From Vicinamibacterales bacterium (lineage in GTDB: Bacteria > Acidobacteriota > Vicinamibacteria > Vicinamibacterales > UBA8438), in the NCBI GenBank assembly GCA_965206285.1, contig OZ242205.1:4564478-4628477 (forward strand): DNA of 64,000 nt. Reading direction: 5' to 3'. The notes under the pieces are model-generated. The model was not told the origin of the DNA, made no database searches, and saw nothing but the letters and a program-made list of their open reading frames with translations. Position 1 is the first letter of the stretch, and each line of letters starts with the position of its first letter. A program made the translations under genes and the position numbers. Positions 27,124 through 63,591 of the stretch are shown in pieces.

Positions 27124-27474
27124 TCAGCGGGGAGAAGGGGTCGCGCTCGGGTCGTCCGCGAGACGATCCAGCGTCCGGTAGAAGCAGGTCCGTTCGCCGG
27201 TGTGGCAGACGTTGCCGTCACCGTTGCGGGTGACCCGCAGCAGCACGGTGTCGTCGTCGCAGTCGACGAGAATCTGCTGCACCGCCAGGGTGTTGCCCGA
27301 CGTCTCTCCCTTCATCCACTGCTTGCCGCGGGTCCGGCTGAAGAACGTGGCGAAGCCCGAGCGGCGGGTCCGGTCCAGCGCCTCCTGGTTCATGAAGCCG
27401 ACCATCAGGACCTCGTTGCTCGAGGCGTCCTGCACGACGGCGGGGATGAGTCCGTCCAGTTTCGAAAAGTCCAT
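27124..27474 (-). CDS. hisI: phosphoribosyl-AMP cyclohydrolase (monofunctional; no HisE domain)
   Basis: 116-aa ORF. GLIPAVVQD, MVGFMNQEAL, FFSRTRGKQWMKGETSGN and DCDDDTVLL..G..CHTG. Confidence 0.85.
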   Translation of the reverse strand: MDFSKLDGLIPAVVQDASSNEVLMVGFMNQEALDRTRRSGFATFFSRTRGKQWMKGETSGNTLAVQQILVDCDDDTVLLRVTRNGDGNVCHTGERTCFYRTLDRLADDPSATPSPR

Positions 27475-32800: not shown

Positions 32801-32923
32801 ATCGGCTACGACGACCGCTACCGGCAGGGCATGCTGATCGACGACATGCTGTTCCCGACCGCCGAGCTGCTGCGGACGAACCGGGCCTTCTTCGGTAAGA
32901 TCTCGTATCTTTTCCGGTACTGA
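29896..32923 (+). pseudogene. large secreted/outer-membrane protein: TolB-N/LpoB-like domain, Pro-rich linker and CBM9-like/DUF5916 domain, interrupted by two 1-nt frame changes
   Basis: Frame 1 (29896 to about 30080): MRMPAMVLAGAALIAPAAPAVGQ..VVVAPFTNVSRQPADDWIGAGIAETIAVDLQDAP. Frame 0 (30081 to about 31966): LEVVGHLAIAPKRIGY..GVVWMIDGTLQRLGDALRITTRIVDVETG..PPEIDGRLDDSVWE..NPDFSQIESD.. Frame 2 (31967-32923): QFGADYNRVAGVDGRFRLG..ISYLFRY. Sense continues across both junctions only if 1 nt is restored at each. Confidence 0.7.
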
Positions 32924-50094: not shown

Positions 50095-50859
50095 TCAGCG
50101 CGCGCGGGAATGTCCGCGAAAGAACGAGACGATCCGCTCGCTGGTCCCGCGCGGGTAGACGTGGGCGCCGGCATGGATCCAGGTCATGACCGGCGCCGCC
50201 GTGCCCGCGCCGTATACCGTGCAGCCGGCTCCGCAACGGGTCGTTGCCTCGACGCCGTTCACCTCGAGGGCGAGGGCGATCGCGGCTTCCTGATCGGAGA
50301 AGCGGACCACCCGATCGCGCTCCCCGGCCACATGGAAGACGGGCCGAGGCTGCCCGGGCCGCACCGAGGGACGGAGGCGGGCCGCCACCGGCGCGTACGC
50401 GGCGAACATGCCGGGGCGCTCCGCCCACAAGAGGTAGGTGAACATCCCGCCGTTCGAGTAGCCCGTCGCGTAGATGCGGTCGTCGTCGACGCTGTACGTT
50501 TCGCGCAGCGACGCCAGCGCCACGTCGACGAGCCTGAGGTCGCGGTCGCCGCGGCCGCCGCGCTCCACCTGCCAGCCGAGGAGGCCGCCGCGCCTCTCGA
50601 GTCCCTGAAAGTACACGACGATCGCGTCGGGCCACGCCACGTGGAGGTTCGTGTACTGGAAGTTCTGCATGTTGTCGCCGAACCCGTGGAACGACAGGAC
50701 CAGCGGTGCTCCTTCCCCTCCCGGTGACGCCGGAGCGTAGACGATGGCTTCGCGCGTCTCGCCGTCGACCTGCCATCTCATGACCTGCGCGGCGGCGTCC
50801 CCGACGCCGGGAATCAGCAACAGGCCGACCAGGGCCACGTGCGTCAGTTGCATTCTCAT
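50095..50859 (-). CDS. secreted alpha/beta-hydrolase esterase (PHB depolymerase/LpqC-like)
   Basis: Met52 of ORF 50095..51012. Signal MRMQLTHVALVGLLLIPGVGDAAAQ. Motifs LSFHGFG, GYSNGG (nucleophile elbow). Confidence 0.7.
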   Translation of the reverse strand: MRMQLTHVALVGLLLIPGVGDAAAQVMRWQVDGETREAIVYAPASPGGEGAPLVLSFHGFGDNMQNFQYTNLHVAWPDAIVVYFQGLERRGGLLGWQVERGGRGDRDLRLVDVALASLRETYSVDDDRIYATGYSNGGMFTYLLWAERPGMFAAYAPVAARLRPSVRPGQPRPVFHVAGERDRVVRFSDQEAAIALALEVNGVEATTRCGAGCTVYGAGTAAPVMTWIHAGAHVYPRGTSERIVSFFRGHSRAR

Positions 50860-54973: not shown

Positions 54974-55426
54974 GTGCATACGAGCCGGTTGCGGATCGAG
55001 CGCATCGGCGGTCCCTTGCGGCACGCGTATCTGGAGGGCTTCGACGAACCGATCCGGTTCGGGGTCCACGGTGGGATCAAGGCGTTCTACGGTGTCGAGC
55101 CGCCGGAAGACGTGCCGGCCACGCTGGATTACATGGTCGGCGCCGTCGGCGGTTGACTGCTCGGCACCCTTGCACGCGCACTGGAGGTGCGCGACATCCC
55201 GGCGCCGACGGAGAAGCTGCAGGCCAGCGTGGAAGGCGACATCCAGGCCATCGACAACGTGCTGCGAATCACGAAGATCCGCGTGCGGTACCGTATCCGG
55301 ATCCCGGCCGGGACCCGCGAGCGGGCGCAGCGGGCGGTCGACACCCACGCGACGAAGTGCCCCGCCGCCAACAGCGTACGCGGGTGCATCGACCTCGATA
55401 TCGCCGCCGACATCGCGGAGGAGTGA
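54974..55426 (+). CDS. OsmC/Ohr family peroxiredoxin-like protein with in-frame UGA at the first catalytic Cys position (candidate selenoprotein, or a nonsense pseudogene)
   Basis: ORFs 54857..55156 and 55187..55426 are in the same frame, separated only by TGA (55154-55156). Joined they read ..PATLDYMVGAVGG-U-LLGTLARALEV..DTHATKCPAANSV. U is at residue ~61 and Cys at ~129 of ~150 aa, mirroring the two conserved OsmC cysteines. Confidence 0.6.
55175..55193 (+). other. candidate bacterial SECIS-like hairpin
   Basis: CGCGCAC-TGGAG-GTGCGCG, a perfect 7-bp stem with a 5-nt G-containing loop, starting 18 nt after the UGA. Confidence 0.4.
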
Positions 55427-55704
55427 TCCGGGCGTCCATCGAAGCTGCGCAGGTGGAGAACCGGGCCGCGCACACGGAGCTGGATCGGAAGATGGAGAAC
55501 CTCGGAGAGCGTATCGACCGGCTGTACGAGCTGCTGCCGGCCCAGGCGGACCGGGTAATCGCGCCGCGCGACCTCGGGGAAACAAGAGTTGCGGAGGCCG
55601 GCAACGGTGGTGGTCACGGGCCGTCCGCCGTCGTCCCGCTCTGCGTCGGGCCAGGATCACCGGTTTCAGAACGCGACTTGGGGGTTGTCGTTCGTACACC
55701 GTGA
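55423..55704 (+). CDS. small hypothetical protein (93 aa), translationally coupled on both sides
   Basis: Its GTG overlaps the OsmC-like stop (GTGA) and its TGA overlaps the next ATG (TGATG). Sequence ..AAHTELDRKMENLGERIDRLYELLPAQ.. has coiled-coil character. No family recognised. Confidence 0.35.
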   Translation: MIRASIEAAQVENRAAHTELDRKMENLGERIDRLYELLPAQADRVIAPRDLGETRVAEAGNGGGHGPSAVVPLCVGPGSPVSERDLGVVVRTP

Positions 55705-57281
55705 TGCCTGCGGCGGAATCGATCGCCTGGCTCGCATGGGGAGCCGACGCCTTCGCCCGCGCCGCGGCGGAGCAGAAACCGGTCCTCCTGTTCATCGGCA
55801 CCGCGTGGTGCCGGTGGACGGCGGAGATGGATCGGTTCAGCTACCGCGATGCGCGCGTCGTGCGTCTCGTGGCCGACCGGTTCCTGCCGGTGCGGGTCGA
55901 CGCCGAGCGGCGCCCCGACGTCAGCGCGCGGTACAGCCTCGACGGGTGGCCGACCACCGCGTTCCTCACCCCGGACGGCGACCTCCTGGGAGGCGGAACC
56001 TATCTCGATGCCGACGCCCTGACCGCGGTGCTGGCCGACGTGGCCGCCGCGTTCGCGGGCCGGCGCGCGGACATCGACGCGCGCGCCGCCGCCGTCCGGA
56101 CCGCGGCGGCGCCGTCCGGGCAGCCGGGCCGCACCGCCGGCGTCCGCCGGACCCCCGGGGATGCGGATTACCCCGCCGGGCTGGGCGGCGCCACGGGACC
56201 GGGCCACGATGCCGGCCTGGACCACGACGCCGGGCAGTGGCTGCACGATCTGCTGCTGGTGCGCTTCGACGCGACCTGGGCCGGCTTCGGCGACGGCGCC
56301 AAGCGGGTCGAGGCCGACGCCCTCGCCGCCGCCCTTCTGCGGTGTCGCGACACCCGGGACCCGGACCTGACCCGCATCGTCGCCCGCACGCTGGACGGCA
56401 TGGCCGGCGGAGGCCTGTGGGATCCGGTCGACGGCGGGTTCTTCCGCTACTGCGCGGCGCGCGACTGGTCGGAGCCGGCGCCGGAAAAGCTGCTGGTGCC
56501 GAACGCGCGCCTGCTCGATCTGTACCTCTCCGCGTCGACCATCCTGGATCGGCCGGACTACGCCGAACGCGCGCGCGCCATCGTCCGCTTCGTGCACGGC
56601 GCGCTGGCCGACGCCGACGGCGGGTTCTTCGCCAGCCAGCGGGGAGCGCCCGATCCCGACCGGCCCGGGCACTCCCCGGCGCCGGGACACGGGGCCATCG
56701 ACCCGACCGTCTACACGGATGCCACCGCGGTCATGGCCTCCGCCTACGTGCACGGCGCGTCGGTGCTCGACGACCGTTCGCTCCTCGAGTTCGCGGCCGA
56801 GTCGGTCGATCGGGTGGTGATGGCGACGTACGAGCGCGGCGGCGGCGTCGGACACACCGCGGCCGGGAGTCCGATCCCGCGCGGACTGCTCGGCGACCAG
56901 GTGCTGGCGAGCGCGGCCCTGCTCGATCTGTACGAGGTGACGGGGCAGCCCGTCTATCTCGACATGCCGCGTGAGCTGATGGCCTATTGCCACCAGACCC
57001 TGTGGGACGAGACCGGCGGCTTCGCCGACCGGGACCCCAGGCTCCCCGGCCCGGACGCACCGGCCGGGCTCCTGCGCGATCCCGTCTACCCGCTGGACCT
57101 CAACTGCCGCGCCGCGATGGTGCTCGTCCGCCTGGCCGCCCTGGCCGAAGAGCCGGGCTATCTGGACCTCGCGCGCCGGACCCTGGCGCTGCAGACGCCC
57201 GTGTATCGCGAGCTGGGACTCGCCGGCGCCGCCTACGTGCTGGCGCTGGACGCGGCGTCCGGTGCGTCGTCGCGACAATGA
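55704..57281 (+). CDS. thioredoxin-domain protein of the DUF255/YyaL type (thioredoxin fold plus alpha/alpha-toroid domain)
   Basis: In the frame of ORF 55071..57281 from the ATG at 55704. IAWLAWGADAFARAAAEQKPVLLFIGTAWCRW..DAERRPDVSARY..WPTTAFLTPDG..GGLWDPVDGGFFRY. The usual CxxC is reduced to a single Cys. Confidence 0.75.
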   Translation: MPAAESIAWLAWGADAFARAAAEQKPVLLFIGTAWCRWTAEMDRFSYRDARVVRLVADRFLPVRVDAERRPDVSARYSLDGWPTTAFLTPDGDLLGGGTYLDADALTAVLADVAAAFAGRRADIDARAAAVRTAAAPSGQPGRTAGVRRTPGDADYPAGLGGATGPGHDAGLDHDAGQWLHDLLLVRFDATWAGFGDGAKRVEADALAAALLRCRDTRDPDLTRIVARTLDGMAGGGLWDPVDGGFFRYCAARDWSEPAPEKLLVPNARLLDLYLSASTILDRPDYAERARAIVRFVHGALADADGGFFASQRGAPDPDRPGHSPAPGHGAIDPTVYTDATAVMASAYVHGASVLDDRSLLEFAAESVDRVVMATYERGGGVGHTAAGSPIPRGLLGDQVLASAALLDLYEVTGQPVYLDMPRELMAYCHQTLWDETGGFADRDPRLPGPDAPAGLLRDPVYPLDLNCRAAMVLVRLAALAEEPGYLDLARRTLALQTPVYRELGLAGAAYVLALDAASGASSRQ

Positions 57282-60566: not shown

Positions 60567-61169
60567 TCAGCGCACCGCGTCGCTTGCCAGGCGGTCGTCC
60601 GGGTCGAACCGGTCGCGCGCCGGCATGACGACGTCGGGCAGGGTGGCCGCATTCATCACCGCCTGGTCGTCGATGATGCCGTTCTTGGCCAGGATCCAGG
60701 CGACGAGCCCGTATACCTCGTCCGGGCTCAACGTCCCGGGGGCATTGCGGGGCATCGCGCGGTAGATGTAGTCGTAGAGGGTCGTGGCGTACGGCCAGTA
60801 GTTGCCGACGGTCGGCGGACGCGCCGCCGGGTCGCGGCCGACCAGCGGAGCGGCGATGCTGCCTTCGCCCTCCCGGCCATGACAGGAGCGGCAGGCGCGC
60901 CCCCAGACGAGCGCGCCCTCCGCGGCGCTGCCGCCGCCGAGCGGCAGTCCGGCGCCGTCCGGCATGACGTCGATGTCGAGGGCCGCGATTTCGTCCGCGG
61001 TCGCCGGGCGTCCCAGCCCCAGCGGGCCCGCCGCCGGGTCCGCCGACTGCCCGGCCGCGGCCCAGGGCGCTCCCGCCAGCAGGAGAGCCAGCCCGAACCC
61101 GCCGGCAAGCGCGCTTGCGCGCGGCCGCGCCGGCCGGCCGGTTCCGCGCGGGGAAGCCGTGCGGGTCAT
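60567..61169 (-). CDS. sorB: c-type cytochrome subunit of sulfite dehydrogenase (SorB/SoxD-like)
   Basis: Last 200 aa of ORF 60567..62492. Haem site CRSCHG. ATGA overlap with the Mo-subunit gene stop (61166-61169). Confidence 0.7.
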   Translation of the reverse strand: MTRTASPRGTGRPARPRASALAGGFGLALLLAGAPWAAAGQSADPAAGPLGLGRPATADEIAALDIDVMPDGAGLPLGGGSAAEGALVWGRACRSCHGREGEGSIAAPLVGRDPAARPPTVGNYWPYATTLYDYIYRAMPRNAPGTLSPDEVYGLVAWILAKNGIIDDQAVMNAATLPDVVMPARDRFDPDDRLASDAVR

Positions 61170-62395
61170 GACTGCAGCCTTTCCGCTCCGAACAGGACCC
61201 TTCCGTCGGCGCCGATGGTCCACGAGGTGATGGGGTTCTGGTGGTACCGGGTCCGCGGTCCCCGGGCCGCGACGAGAGCCTCCCAGGTCGGCTGCACGTA
61301 GCCGGTCTCGTCGGTCGCGCGGCTCATGATCTCGGCCGCGCCGCCGTCCCAGCGCCACGGGGCGCGGAACCGCACATGGGCCTTCGCCAGCACCGGCGCC
61401 TGCAGCTCCGCTTCCTGCCAGGTCGCGCCGCCGTCGGCGCTGACGTCGACCCGCGCGATCCGGCCGCGGCCGCTCCACGCCAGCCCGCGGATCTCGTGCC
61501 AGCCGGGCTCGATGACGCGGGGATAGGCGGGATCGGTGATGATGGACCGCGCGTCCATGACGAAGCTGAACTGGCGCGAGCGGCTCCCGTCCCCGAGGGG
61601 GTCGGTGTACTTCGACGTTTCTTCCCGGGTCATGAACGGCCGGTCGGCGAGCTCGATGCGGCGGAGCCACTTGACGCTGGAGTTGCCTTCCCACCCCGGC
61701 AGCAGCAGCCGGGCGGGGTACCCGTTGCCGGGCATCAGGGCGTCGCCGTTCTGCGCGTAGACGATCATCGCGTCGTCGAACGCCTTCTCCATCGGGATGC
61801 TGCGGGTCATCACCGCGGCGTCCTGTCCCTCGGCGAGGAACCACGTGGCGCCGGCGTGCGCGCCGACCTCGCGGAGCACCGTCGACAGCAGGACCCCGGT
61901 CCACTCGGTCTGGCTCGTGAGCCCGCAGACCATCTGCGGCAGAGTCTCCGGCGCGCCCCGCCGGAGGTTGCCCGAGCACTCGAGGAAGCAGATCCGCGAC
62001 GTGGCGGGGAAACGCTCGAGGTCGGCCAGCGTGAAGAGGGTCGGGCGGTCGACCAGGCCGTGGACGAGGAGCTCGTACCGATCCGGGTCGATCGCGGGCA
62101 CCCCGCCGTGGTGCCGCTCGAAATGCAGATCCGCCGGGGTGATGGTGCCCCGCAGTTCCTGCAGAGGCGTGCGCGAGGACGTCGAGCTGGGGTCGCGCCG
62201 CGGGGTCACGAAGGGCGAGCGCTGCCCGACCTCGTTCGGACCGGGTCCGGGACGCCGGGTGGTGTCGATGGCCTGCTGCCCGGCCGCCGGCGCCGCCGCG
62301 GCCACCGCCCCGGCCGCCCCGGCGAGCACTTCCCGGCGGGTCAGGCCGACCCGCCGCGGGCGAGAGGAGTCTGCCGATCGTTCGTGGTGCGCCAT
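61166..62395 (-). CDS. sorA: sulfite dehydrogenase molybdopterin subunit (SorA/SoxC-like)
   Basis: 409-aa ORF. Tat signal TRREVLAGAAGAVAAAAP. Motifs FERHHGG, FLECSGN (Mo-ligand Cys), GYPARLLLPGWEGNSSVKWL, plus a C-terminal dimerisation domain. Confidence 0.8.
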   Translation of the reverse strand: MAHHERSADSSRPRRVGLTRREVLAGAAGAVAAAAPAAGQQAIDTTRRPGPGPNEVGQRSPFVTPRRDPSSTSSRTPLQELRGTITPADLHFERHHGGVPAIDPDRYELLVHGLVDRPTLFTLADLERFPATSRICFLECSGNLRRGAPETLPQMVCGLTSQTEWTGVLLSTVLREVGAHAGATWFLAEGQDAAVMTRSIPMEKAFDDAMIVYAQNGDALMPGNGYPARLLLPGWEGNSSVKWLRRIELADRPFMTREETSKYTDPLGDGSRSRQFSFVMDARSIITDPAYPRVIEPGWHEIRGLAWSGRGRIARVDVSADGGATWQEAELQAPVLAKAHVRFRAPWRWDGGAAEIMSRATDETGYVQPTWEALVAARGPRTRYHQNPITSWTIGADGRVLFGAERLQS

Positions 62396-62530
62396 GGCTC
62401 AGCCACCCCCAATTTGTCCGCCTTCGTTTCGAAGCCGGCCCTGCGGTGTTTCCGCCGCAACCCCGGCGCCGCCAGCCGGTATTATGACGCACTCCGACCG
62501 TAAGCGGCCCGGAGGCAACGCGGGGACCCT

Positions 62531-62767
62531 TTAGATGGAAGGGACCGAGAGCGAGCGCAATGCTCCGATGACCTCGTCGGGCTCGGGAAACCGCTGCTCC
62601 TTCTGCTTCGAGAAGATCAGCTCACCGTCGGCGACCACGTCGAACTGTCCGCGGCCACCGACCACCACGTCGGTTTCGACGCCGATCGCGTCCTTGATTG
62701 CGGCCGCCAAACTGGCGGCCTTGGGCAGGTAGTTTCAAACCTTGCAGTAACTGATTGACAGCTTCAT
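62531..62767 (-). CDS. SelW-like / Rdx family selenoprotein (CxxU), 78 aa including Sec
   Basis: Not in the ORF track because it is split by TGA at 62737-62735. My translation: MKLSISYCKV-U-NYLPKAASLAAAIKDAIGVETDVVVGGRGQFDVVADGELIFSKQKEQRFPEPDEVIGALRSLSVPSI-stop. This is a textbook Rdx pattern (I.YC..U.Y..+A..LA, GG.G.F.V..DGELIFSK...RFPE). Confidence 0.8.
62702..62720 (-). other. candidate bacterial SECIS hairpin of the SelW-like gene
   Basis: RNA GGCCGCC-AGUUU-GGCGGCC, a perfect 7-bp stem with a 5-nt loop, starting 14 nt after the UGA. Confidence 0.5.
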
Positions 62768-62839
62768 GGCGGCTCATGGTACCGCAGCGAGCCCCGTGCG
62801 TGCAACGGCGCTTCGAGCCCGTCTGGAGCGGCGTCGTGG

Positions 62840-63283
62840 TCAGGGCATGATGACTTCGACGTGGGCGCGCGTGGCCGCGAGGGGCGCCAGGCGCCGATCG
62901 AGCGTCAAGAGCGTGGCGTTGTTGGTGACGGCGACCGCCAGCAGGTAGGCATCCGTCACCTGCTGGTGCCCAAGCAGATGTCCGAAGTGTGTCTCCACCT
63001 GCCGGAGGGGCGGAAGCGGCTCCACGTAGCGGTGCCGGCGGTCGCGAACCAGCCTGGCGAGCACATCGAGCGCCTGGGCGGGCGTTCGGCGCACGCCCAC
63101 GACGGCGGGGTTCGACGAGAGGCGTACGAAACCGAGCTGGGTGAGCACGCACGTGGCCCAGCCGGCGGCGGGCCGGCGCTCGAGCCGGCCCACCACGGCC
63201 CGGTGGAACTGGTGGTTGGGCCACCCGAGCGCCATGAGCGCGTTGACGTCGAGCAGCAGCGGACGGTTCTCAGACGACGCCAT
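62840..63283 (-). CDS. vapC: PIN-domain toxin
   Basis: 147-aa ORF. LLLDVNALMAL..H.FH, and QVTDAYLLAVAVTNNATLLTLDRRL. Confidence 0.8.
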   Translation of the reverse strand: MASSENRPLLLDVNALMALGWPNHQFHRAVVGRLERRPAAGWATCVLTQLGFVRLSSNPAVVGVRRTPAQALDVLARLVRDRRHRYVEPLPPLRQVETHFGHLLGHQQVTDAYLLAVAVTNNATLLTLDRRLAPLAATRAHVEVIMP

Positions 63284-63515
63284 CGGCGTCGAGCGCCTTC
63301 TGGATCCGGGAGGCGGGAATCACGCTCGCGGTTCGGGGAACCTCGAACGCGGCGAACCGTCCCGTGCCTCCACGTTTCTCGGGAGCCTGCGGCTCGGGTT
63401 GCAGCGCCTGCCGCGCCATGTCCGACAGGACGCGTCCGAGTCGCTGACCGGTGGCGCGGGCGTGGCTCAGCGCCGCTTCGTAGATGTCGTCGTCGATGGT
63501 CACCGTCGTTCGCAT
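63270..63515 (-). CDS. vapB: VapB-type antitoxin
   Basis: Met13 of ORF 63270..63551. MRTTVTIDDDIYEAALSHA.. is the typical N-terminus of this antitoxin family. Overlaps vapC by 14 nt. Confidence 0.75.
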   Translation of the reverse strand: MRTTVTIDDDIYEAALSHARATGQRLGRVLSDMARQALQPEPQAPEKRGGTGRFAAFEVPRTASVIPASRIQKALDADGVV

Positions 63516-63591
63516 GGCCGCATGATACAGTGATACACCTGCATCGTCCACGCGATATCGTCGCGCCGCCGGCCGACAGCCGCGCGCGGCG

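Follow-up and report, generated by a model that had tools for sequence, protein, structure and literature searches.

A probable SelW-like selenoprotein gene with an in-frame TGA codon and a candidate SECIS hairpin in a Vicinamibacterales genome

Does a TGA triplet that interrupts a short reading frame after ten codons end a gene, or is it read as selenocysteine (Sec)? This question is raised by the minus strand of a 64,000-nucleotide stretch of DNA from a Vicinamibacterales bacterium (Acidobacteriota; assembly GCA_965206285.1, contig OZ242205.1, positions 4,564,478 to 4,628,477), which is referred to in its full length as the window. Close to the end of the window (Table 1), an original prediction made from the letters and a list of open reading frames (ORFs) had placed an uncalled gene of the SelW-like (Rdx) family, with Sec in a CxxU motif and a selenocysteine insertion sequence (SECIS) downstream. 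Comparison with related loci indicates that this segment is very probably a functional gene, encoding a 78-residue SelW-like (Rdx, thioredoxin-like) selenoprotein of the Vicinamibacterales.

Reading frame, family and conservation of the TGA codon

Read on the minus strand from 62767 to 62531, the DNA runs ATG AAG CTG TCA ATC AGT TAC TGC AAG GTT TGA AAC TAC CTG … TAA, with the translation MKLSISYCKV*NYLPKAASLAAAIKDAIGVETDVVVGGRGQFDVVADGELIFSKQKEQRFPEPDEVIGALRSLSVPSI*. The original prediction had given the beginning of this frame correctly to the base. Two codons 5' of the ATG stands a second in-frame TGA, and this ATG is therefore the only possible start. Apart from codon 11 the frame is clean, with neither a frameshift nor a further stop, and purifying selection is evident along its entire length. 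The mechanical ORF list contains, in this frame, only a 59-residue ORF with a TTG start (62531..62710, minus strand), as well as the antisense 65-residue shadow (62535..62732, plus strand) to which attention had been drawn before.

The assignment to the Rdx/SelW family, likewise part of the original prediction, is borne out by profile searches, for all of which U was written as C. The protein matches Pfam Rdx (PF10262) with 59.2 bits (E = 4.8e-16; cut-off 22.6) and NCBIfam TIGR02174 (CXXU_selWTH) with 51.4 bits (cut-off 34.2), in both cases over profile positions 2-73 of 74 and above the curated cut-off. Its highest NCBIfam score is obtained with NF041051 (SelTWH_Campy), where residues 4-70 lie on profile positions 2-69 of 70; with 83.5 bits against a cut-off of 88 it narrowly misses this equivalog, of which it is a close relative and not a member. 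In addition, the protein can be aligned over its whole length with four solved Rdx proteins of the Cys type, i.e. human MIEN1/C17orf37 (2LJK), Agrobacterium Atu0228 (2FA8), Streptomyces SAV_2001 (3DEX) and the Vibrio SelW-related protein (2P0G), with E values from 4e-9 to 1e-3, and it may adopt the thioredoxin-like alpha/beta fold.

The segment Y-C8-K-V-U11 near the N-terminus coincides with the redox motif of the Rdx family. Three alignments, with 2LJK (CEPC), 2FA8 (CTQC) and 3DEX (CTQC), place C8 and U11 on the two cysteines of the CxxC motif, and the position of Cys8 is occupied by Cys in all 75 distinct relatives. The claim that the UGA occupies the second redox position (CxxU) is thus in line with the comparison that had been proposed for checking it, namely an alignment with Cys-type Rdx homologues, in which U11 matches the redox Cys. 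These homologues carry the redox motif in the same place; they differ in having CxxC, hence need neither UGA recoding nor a SECIS, and in possessing 20-30 extra residues.

Relatives were collected in a one-genome-per-species scan that gave 80 loci (labelled L001 onwards) with 47-96% identity. The best of these are from metagenome-assembled genomes (MAGs) of Vicinamibacterales, while the others stem from further Acidobacteriota, Myxococcota, Planctomycetota, Gaiellaceae and more; to contig CBDCEY010000006.1 (L001), the window DNA is 96.5% identical over approximately 9.5 kb. The orthologue is also present on the complete chromosomes OZ241843.1 and OZ253457.1. At the codon aligned to U11, 79 of the 80 loci have TGA, and neither TAA nor TAG occurs; with the window counted in, all 80 stops seen at this place are TGA. 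Moreover, the ten codons 5' of the TGA (M-x-[ILV]-x-I-x-Y-C-x-x) are kept in frame across phyla and vary synonymously. Given this exclusive conservation of TGA together with the in-frame upstream codons, the TGA was considered to be neither a true stop nor the mark of a pseudogene or of faulty sequencing.

For the pseudogene or error, according to which a Cys-type (TGC/TGT) Rdx gene has decayed or has been misread during sequencing or assembly, it can be said that TGA is one base away from TGC or TGT. The sole exceptional locus, L036 (Vicinamibacterales chromosome OZ219745.1, 10001-10240), may also be quoted in its favour: a 9-nt in-frame deletion has taken out the Sec codon (…YC-THLPRA…), and the remaining ORF as well as the hairpin are retained despite this deletion; the redox centre may have been lost recently here, or the assembly may be faulty. 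Against such an origin stand the intact, selected frame and the recurrence of the TGA in 79 assemblies that are independent of one another and diverge at numerous further positions. The comparative data effectively refute this explanation, whose probability is negligible.

A true stop would make the real gene a downstream ORF of 59-65 residues starting with CTG or TTG, and the ten upstream codons would be non-coding. This is exactly what the ORF list and the database gene calls give, and the 59-residue fragment alone still matches Pfam Rdx with 34.5 bits. Such a product would, however, lack strand 1 and the entire CxxC/CxxU centre that defines the family, and only on read-through does the profile match reach position 2 of 74; the in-frame, synonymously varying codons 5' of the TGA and its invariable identity speak against a stop as well. 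The explanation is accordingly regarded as extremely improbable. The gene calls themselves can be accounted for in another way: close database proteins are nearly all fragments of 45-65 residues that open with 'MPKASSLAA…', their start being the CTG immediately 3' of U-N-Y, and such CTG-start fragments are the usual signature of selenoprotein mis-annotation. One acidobacterial relative does bear the NCBI name 'selenoprotein'.

As a side observation on the codon context, the base 5' of the UGA (62738 in the window) is usually U, with GTT used 31 times and GTC 9 times where codon 10 is Val, and the two bases 3' of the UGA (window 62734-62733) are AA in 90% or more of the sequences. Either an amino-acid effect (Asn or Lys) or a recoding-context effect could underlie this bias.

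The hairpin downstream of the TGA codon

Exactly 14 nt 3' of the UGA begins a perfect 7-bp stem formed by GGCCGCC (62720-62714) and GGCGGCC (62708-62702), which encloses the loop AGUUU (62713-62709) with G62712 and U62711 as the invariant loop GU. Stem length, spacing and the G in the loop had all been described correctly to the base in the original prediction, where the hairpin was called a plausible bacterial SECIS. According to the published consensus (PMC13188914, Fig. 2 legend), bacterial SECIS elements have an upper stem of 4-16 bp, a distance of 16-37 nt between UGA and loop, and a minimum free energy of -7.5 kcal/mol or lower. The window hairpin agrees with this consensus in four of four respects, i.e. 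with 7 bp, 21 nt from UGA to loop, -15.3 kcal/mol when folded alone, and a 5-nt loop of the N1-G-U-N-N2 type.

The plausibility of the element is further raised by compensatory changes in its stem. In a gap-free alignment of 66 distinct sequences, the seven stem pairs are formed in 90.5% of the cells, compared with 27-54% if the 3' arm is displaced by 1-3 nt, and 28 stem cells are changed on both sides. The covariation score amounts to 0.243 versus 0.093 ± 0.011 for shuffled alignments, none of which (0/500) scored as high. Pair 33:39, for example, is intact throughout, as C-G in 50 sequences and as G-C in the other 16, and this switch consists of two synonymous changes, from GCC to GCG for Ala and from YTG to CTC for Leu.

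A second line of evidence is provided by the loop, whose G and U are unchanged across all 66 sequences and whose consensus in the relatives is AGUCU. The GU constitutes bases 2-3 of a codon for which 63 of the 75 distinct sequences have Ser, and all 63 encode this Ser by AGT, a triplet that makes up 2.8% of the Ser codons in the confident ORFs of the window and is used in none of the 75 sequences for the other invariant Ser (codon 53). Where the loop codon is not Ser, it is GGT or CGT, and the GU is still kept. The exclusive use of AGT and the persistence of GU with GGT and CGT therefore reflect selection on the RNA and not on the peptide.

Like the SECIS of E. coli fdhF, the window hairpin is a stem-loop that lies inside the coding sequence and closely follows the UGA, with a small apical loop that presents G and then U; the loop of the relatives, AGUCU, resembles the GGUCU of fdhF, and the spacing in the window falls within 16-37 nt. 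Unlike the fdhF element, the window stem has no bulged U. In fdhF, the two loop bases presumably carry the numbers G23/U24, and counted from the U of the UGA the GU of the window lies at +26/+27, i.e. one codon further.

Taken together at the level of sequence, the comparative signature of a selenoprotein gene is present, in that a conserved frame runs through a conserved UGA, a SECIS of the consensus type is under RNA-level selection, and the U occupies the redox-motif position. A sequence of events can be proposed on this basis. Transcription would probably begin just 5' of the ATG from the conserved element TTGCAC-N18-TACCAT and yield a leaderless mRNA, on which translation could initiate directly at the AUG (62767). 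The UGA at codon 11 would then not be read as a stop, as the hairpin may act as a bacterial SECIS whose stem starts approximately at the edge of the ribosomal mRNA channel, 14 nt past the UGA. By analogy with the E. coli paradigm, the loop GU is expected to bind the complex SelB-GTP-Sec-tRNA(Sec), which would deliver selenocysteine to the A site; recoding of this UGA would accordingly depend on SelB. Judging from the family, C8-x-x-U11 most likely cycles between the selenol/thiol and the selenenylsulfide state, and the mature protein may serve as a thiol-dependent oxidoreductase.

Selenocysteine decoding and a second candidate gene

Several observations weigh against the interpretation of the TGA as a Sec codon with its own SECIS. 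The window has a G+C content of approximately 70%, and 19 of its 1115 TGA triplets (1.7%) precede a comparable hairpin, i.e. one at SECIS spacing whose stem has 7 or more bp without a mismatch and whose loop has a G at position 1 or 2, which corresponds to the chance level; the fold of the 61-nt segment is only 1.7 standard deviations better than that of shuffled sequences (z = -1.7). In such GC-rich DNA, the hairpin by itself is only suggestive, and hence the case rests on the family match across the TGA, the conserved TGA and the covariation of the stem. Owing to Ser or Thr codons, half of the sequences have a mismatch at pair 31:41, so that the perfect stem of the window represents a stronger variant. 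The hairpin also overlaps the conserved peptide A-[AS]-S-L-A-A, and its conservation is in part that of the protein; the AGT codon and the compensatory changes speak against the notion that it is a mere by-product of this peptide. A search of the whole window at the Rfam gathering threshold returned no SECIS family, and a permissive search of 62500-62850 gave only chance-level matches to unrelated families. As bacterial SECIS elements are too diverse for a single model (PMC13188914), no Rfam match was to be expected. With regard to the decoding machinery, ARAGORN detected no tRNA-Sec in the flanks of all 80 loci, and tblastn with E. coli SelA, SelB and SelD found no match in the 64-kb window or in the flanks of the Vicinamibacterales loci. 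Finally, the SelW-like proteins of prokaryotes are classed in a 2026 review as 'predicted with high confidence'.

The queries used for tblastn were E. coli sequences, and the SelA query agrees with the database entries for E. coli SelA at 99-100% identity; in a protein database search with SelA, the best 120 matches were all enterobacterial. Within 1.3 Mb of flanking DNA, the sole match to the Sec machinery is a SelB homologue in a deltaproteobacterial MAG (L049, 13405-15288, minus strand), which is full-length, shares 33% identity with E. coli SelB along 640 residues, and is situated approximately 3-5 kb from the SelW-like gene of the same locus. A global reassignment of the code can be dismissed, since 14 of the 22 confident ORFs in the window end normally with TGA.

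The lack of visible Sec machinery in the 64 kb would fit a different decoding, in which the UGA is recoded to Cys or another residue by an opal suppressor or a tRNA(Sec)-like tRNA, such as an allo-tRNA or a tRNA(Cys) of the selC* type. tRNA(Sec)-like allo-tRNAs, which may be nonsense suppressors, have been found in Acidobacteria, and selC* tRNA(Cys) in delta-proteobacteria (PMC5389517). A suppressor tRNA would, however, be at odds with a hairpin that bears a SelB-type signature across many phyla (invariant GU, small apical loop, consensus spacing), and with the location of the UGA at the redox position (Cys or Sec) of a family that has been curated as one of CXXU selenoproteins. Furthermore, ARAGORN detected no tRNA of any kind in the window, and Acidobacteria are already recorded among the selenoprotein-containing phyla (PMC1794560, Table 2). 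Recoding by such a tRNA is considered very improbable, and insertion of Sec remains the preferred reading.

Decoding of Sec by this organism had been claimed in the original prediction together with the consequence that other TGA-interrupted genes should be read anew, and both parts gain support from a second gene in the window. This gene, too, is uncalled, and its in-frame TGA lies 7.3 kb from the SelW-like gene. A Pfam OsmC match spans the TGA (E = 9.5e-13), U61 falls on the peroxidatic Cys in alignments with the Ohr/OsmC structures 4MH4 and 4NOZ, and the resolving Cys is found in KCPAAN. The TGA and a hairpin with a spacing of 25 nt and -12.1 kcal/mol are kept in 13 acidobacterial loci, down to 67% identity. 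OsmC-like proteins with a UxxT motif are a known selenoprotein family (PMC1088965, PMC2398784, PMC13188914); against the NCBIfam model OsmC_like_Se, however, the window protein reaches only 26 bits (cut-off 95) and thus forms a branch apart from the curated selenoprotein subfamily. As the gene is unrelated to the SelW-like one, it independently indicates that Sec is decoded.

Approximately 280 nt 3' of the OsmC-like gene and on the same strand, a DUF255/thioredoxin-domain protein (PF03190, PF13899) is encoded at 55704-57281 (plus). This gene order is retained in several relatives, and the two proteins may constitute a redox pair.

Other TGA-joined ORF pairs, at 27124-27126, 32921-32923, 50095-50097 and 9871, were tried as selenoprotein candidates and rejected as adjacent in-frame genes. 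The first three of these TGAs sit between long coding-like ORFs that look TGA-interrupted by composition. Among the rejected pairs are hisI/hisG, an outer-membrane beta-barrel protein with a YbdK-like carboxylate-amine ligase, and an esterase with a TauD-like dioxygenase.

Table 1. Coordinates of the SelW-like gene, the OsmC-like gene and neighbouring features in the window.
Feature	Position	Strand	Basis or remark
SelW-like (Rdx family) selenoprotein coding sequence (predicted)	62531..62767	-	78 residues including Sec11; translation, profiles, conservation across 80 loci
TAA stop of the SelW-like gene	62533-62531	-	sequence
TGC, Cys8, first residue of CxxU	62744..62746	-	sequence; relatives; solved homologues
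In-frame TGA, U11, predicted to be read as selenocysteine	62735..62737	-	comparative TGA conservation; alignment to solved homologues
SECIS-type hairpin	62702..62720	-	fold, spacing, bacterial SECIS consensus, covariation, loop codon
Promoter-like element	62776..62805	-	-35 TTGCAC 62805-62800, 18-nt spacer, -10 TACCAT 62781-62776; inferred from upstream-region comparison
SorA-type molybdopterin oxidoreductase	61166-62395	-	3' of the SelW-like gene after 135 nt
Cytochrome c	60567-61175	-	3' of the SorA-type gene
VapC (PIN)/VapB-like toxin-antitoxin pair	62840-63551	-	between the SGL-family gene and the SelW-like gene
OsmC-like selenoprotein gene (predicted)	54974-55426	+	Pfam OsmC across the TGA; conserved TGA and hairpin
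In-frame TGA of the OsmC-like gene	55154-55156	+	13 loci; U61 on the peroxidatic Cys
OsmC-like hairpin CGCGCAC-UGGAG-GUGCGCG	55175-55193	+	conserved in 13 loci

Known relatives and genomic neighbourhood

The type of gene found here is well established. SelW-like proteins with CxxU are the most abundant prokaryotic selenoprotein family in the surveys of the Sargasso Sea and of the Global Ocean Sampling expedition (PMC1088965, PMC2398784), where they were described by Zhang, Fomenko and Gladyshev in 2005 and by Zhang and Gladyshev in 2008, respectively. The window protein shares with them the size of approximately 75-80 residues, the N-terminal CxxU, the UGA with a SECIS directly downstream in the coding region, and profile hidden Markov model (HMM) scores that exceed the curated cut-offs. 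It deviates from the survey members, which are mostly marine, in its origin from a soil-type member of the Vicinamibacterales and in its location directly upstream of a pair of SorA-type and cytochrome c genes, and nothing essential separates it from the prokaryotic family. The gene is hence genuine but ordinary, given that the family, the CxxU motif and the coding-region SECIS have been known since 2005 and that a curated HMM named for the motif exists (TIGR02174); this accords with the earlier statement that the family is not novel in itself. Our knowledge of Sec decoding or of SelW-like proteins is not changed by it.

Its significance lies rather in annotation. Genes with UGA for Sec are routinely missed by gene callers, and dozens of Vicinamibacterales MAGs have orthologues of this one that, like it, are uncalled or represented by fragments of 45-65 residues, where 78 residues should be called. 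If, as it appears, this widespread soil lineage uses selenocysteine, in-frame TGAs in its redox genes need to be examined again; within the window, doing so yielded the second putative selenoprotein, the OsmC-like one. In addition, the uniform AGT of the loop and the paired Ala/Leu switches of the stem illustrate cleanly how selection on the RNA acts at the synonymous sites of a SECIS within a coding region.

The neighbourhood raises the possibility of a functional context. No terminator was detected between the SelW-like and the SorA-type gene in a strict sigma-70/terminator scan of 62300-63000. The order of SelW-like, SorA-type and cytochrome c genes recurs in 34 of the 80 loci, all acidobacterial, down to approximately 60% protein identity and including a divergent clade with 'C-T-R-U-K-Y'; in loci of other phyla, the adjacency to SorA is absent. 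Conceivably, the SelW-like protein of Vicinamibacteria works together with the molybdenum sulfite dehydrogenase of the SorA type and with the cytochrome c of that enzyme, although such a functional coupling is considered unlikely. Possible roles would be the redox maintenance or maturation of the molybdenum enzyme or participation in a sulfite- or selenite-handling module, and, if true, the coupling would provide the first functional context for bacterial SelW-like proteins.

On the other side, the VapC/VapB-like pair is followed further upstream by a gene of the SGL family. This pair occupies the same place in the window and in L001, while the other Vicinamibacterales loci have it at a different place or lack it, a pattern suggestive of a mobile insertion.

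The promoter-like element ends 8 nt 5' of the ATG, and no Shine-Dalgarno sequence is present. The strict sigma-70 scan of 62300-63000 did not call this element; its motif TTGCNC-N17/18-TAnnnT ends 6-9 nt before the ATG in loci L001-L023, and the flanking sequence diverges. With a promoter so close to the start codon and no Shine-Dalgarno sequence, the SelW-like mRNA would be leaderless or nearly so, which suggests a selenoprotein mRNA in which the UGA may follow the 5' end after only 30 nt. The arrangement differs in a second clade (L027-L038), in that TAGTATAC and then an AAGGAG leader take the place of the TTGCNC-type motif.

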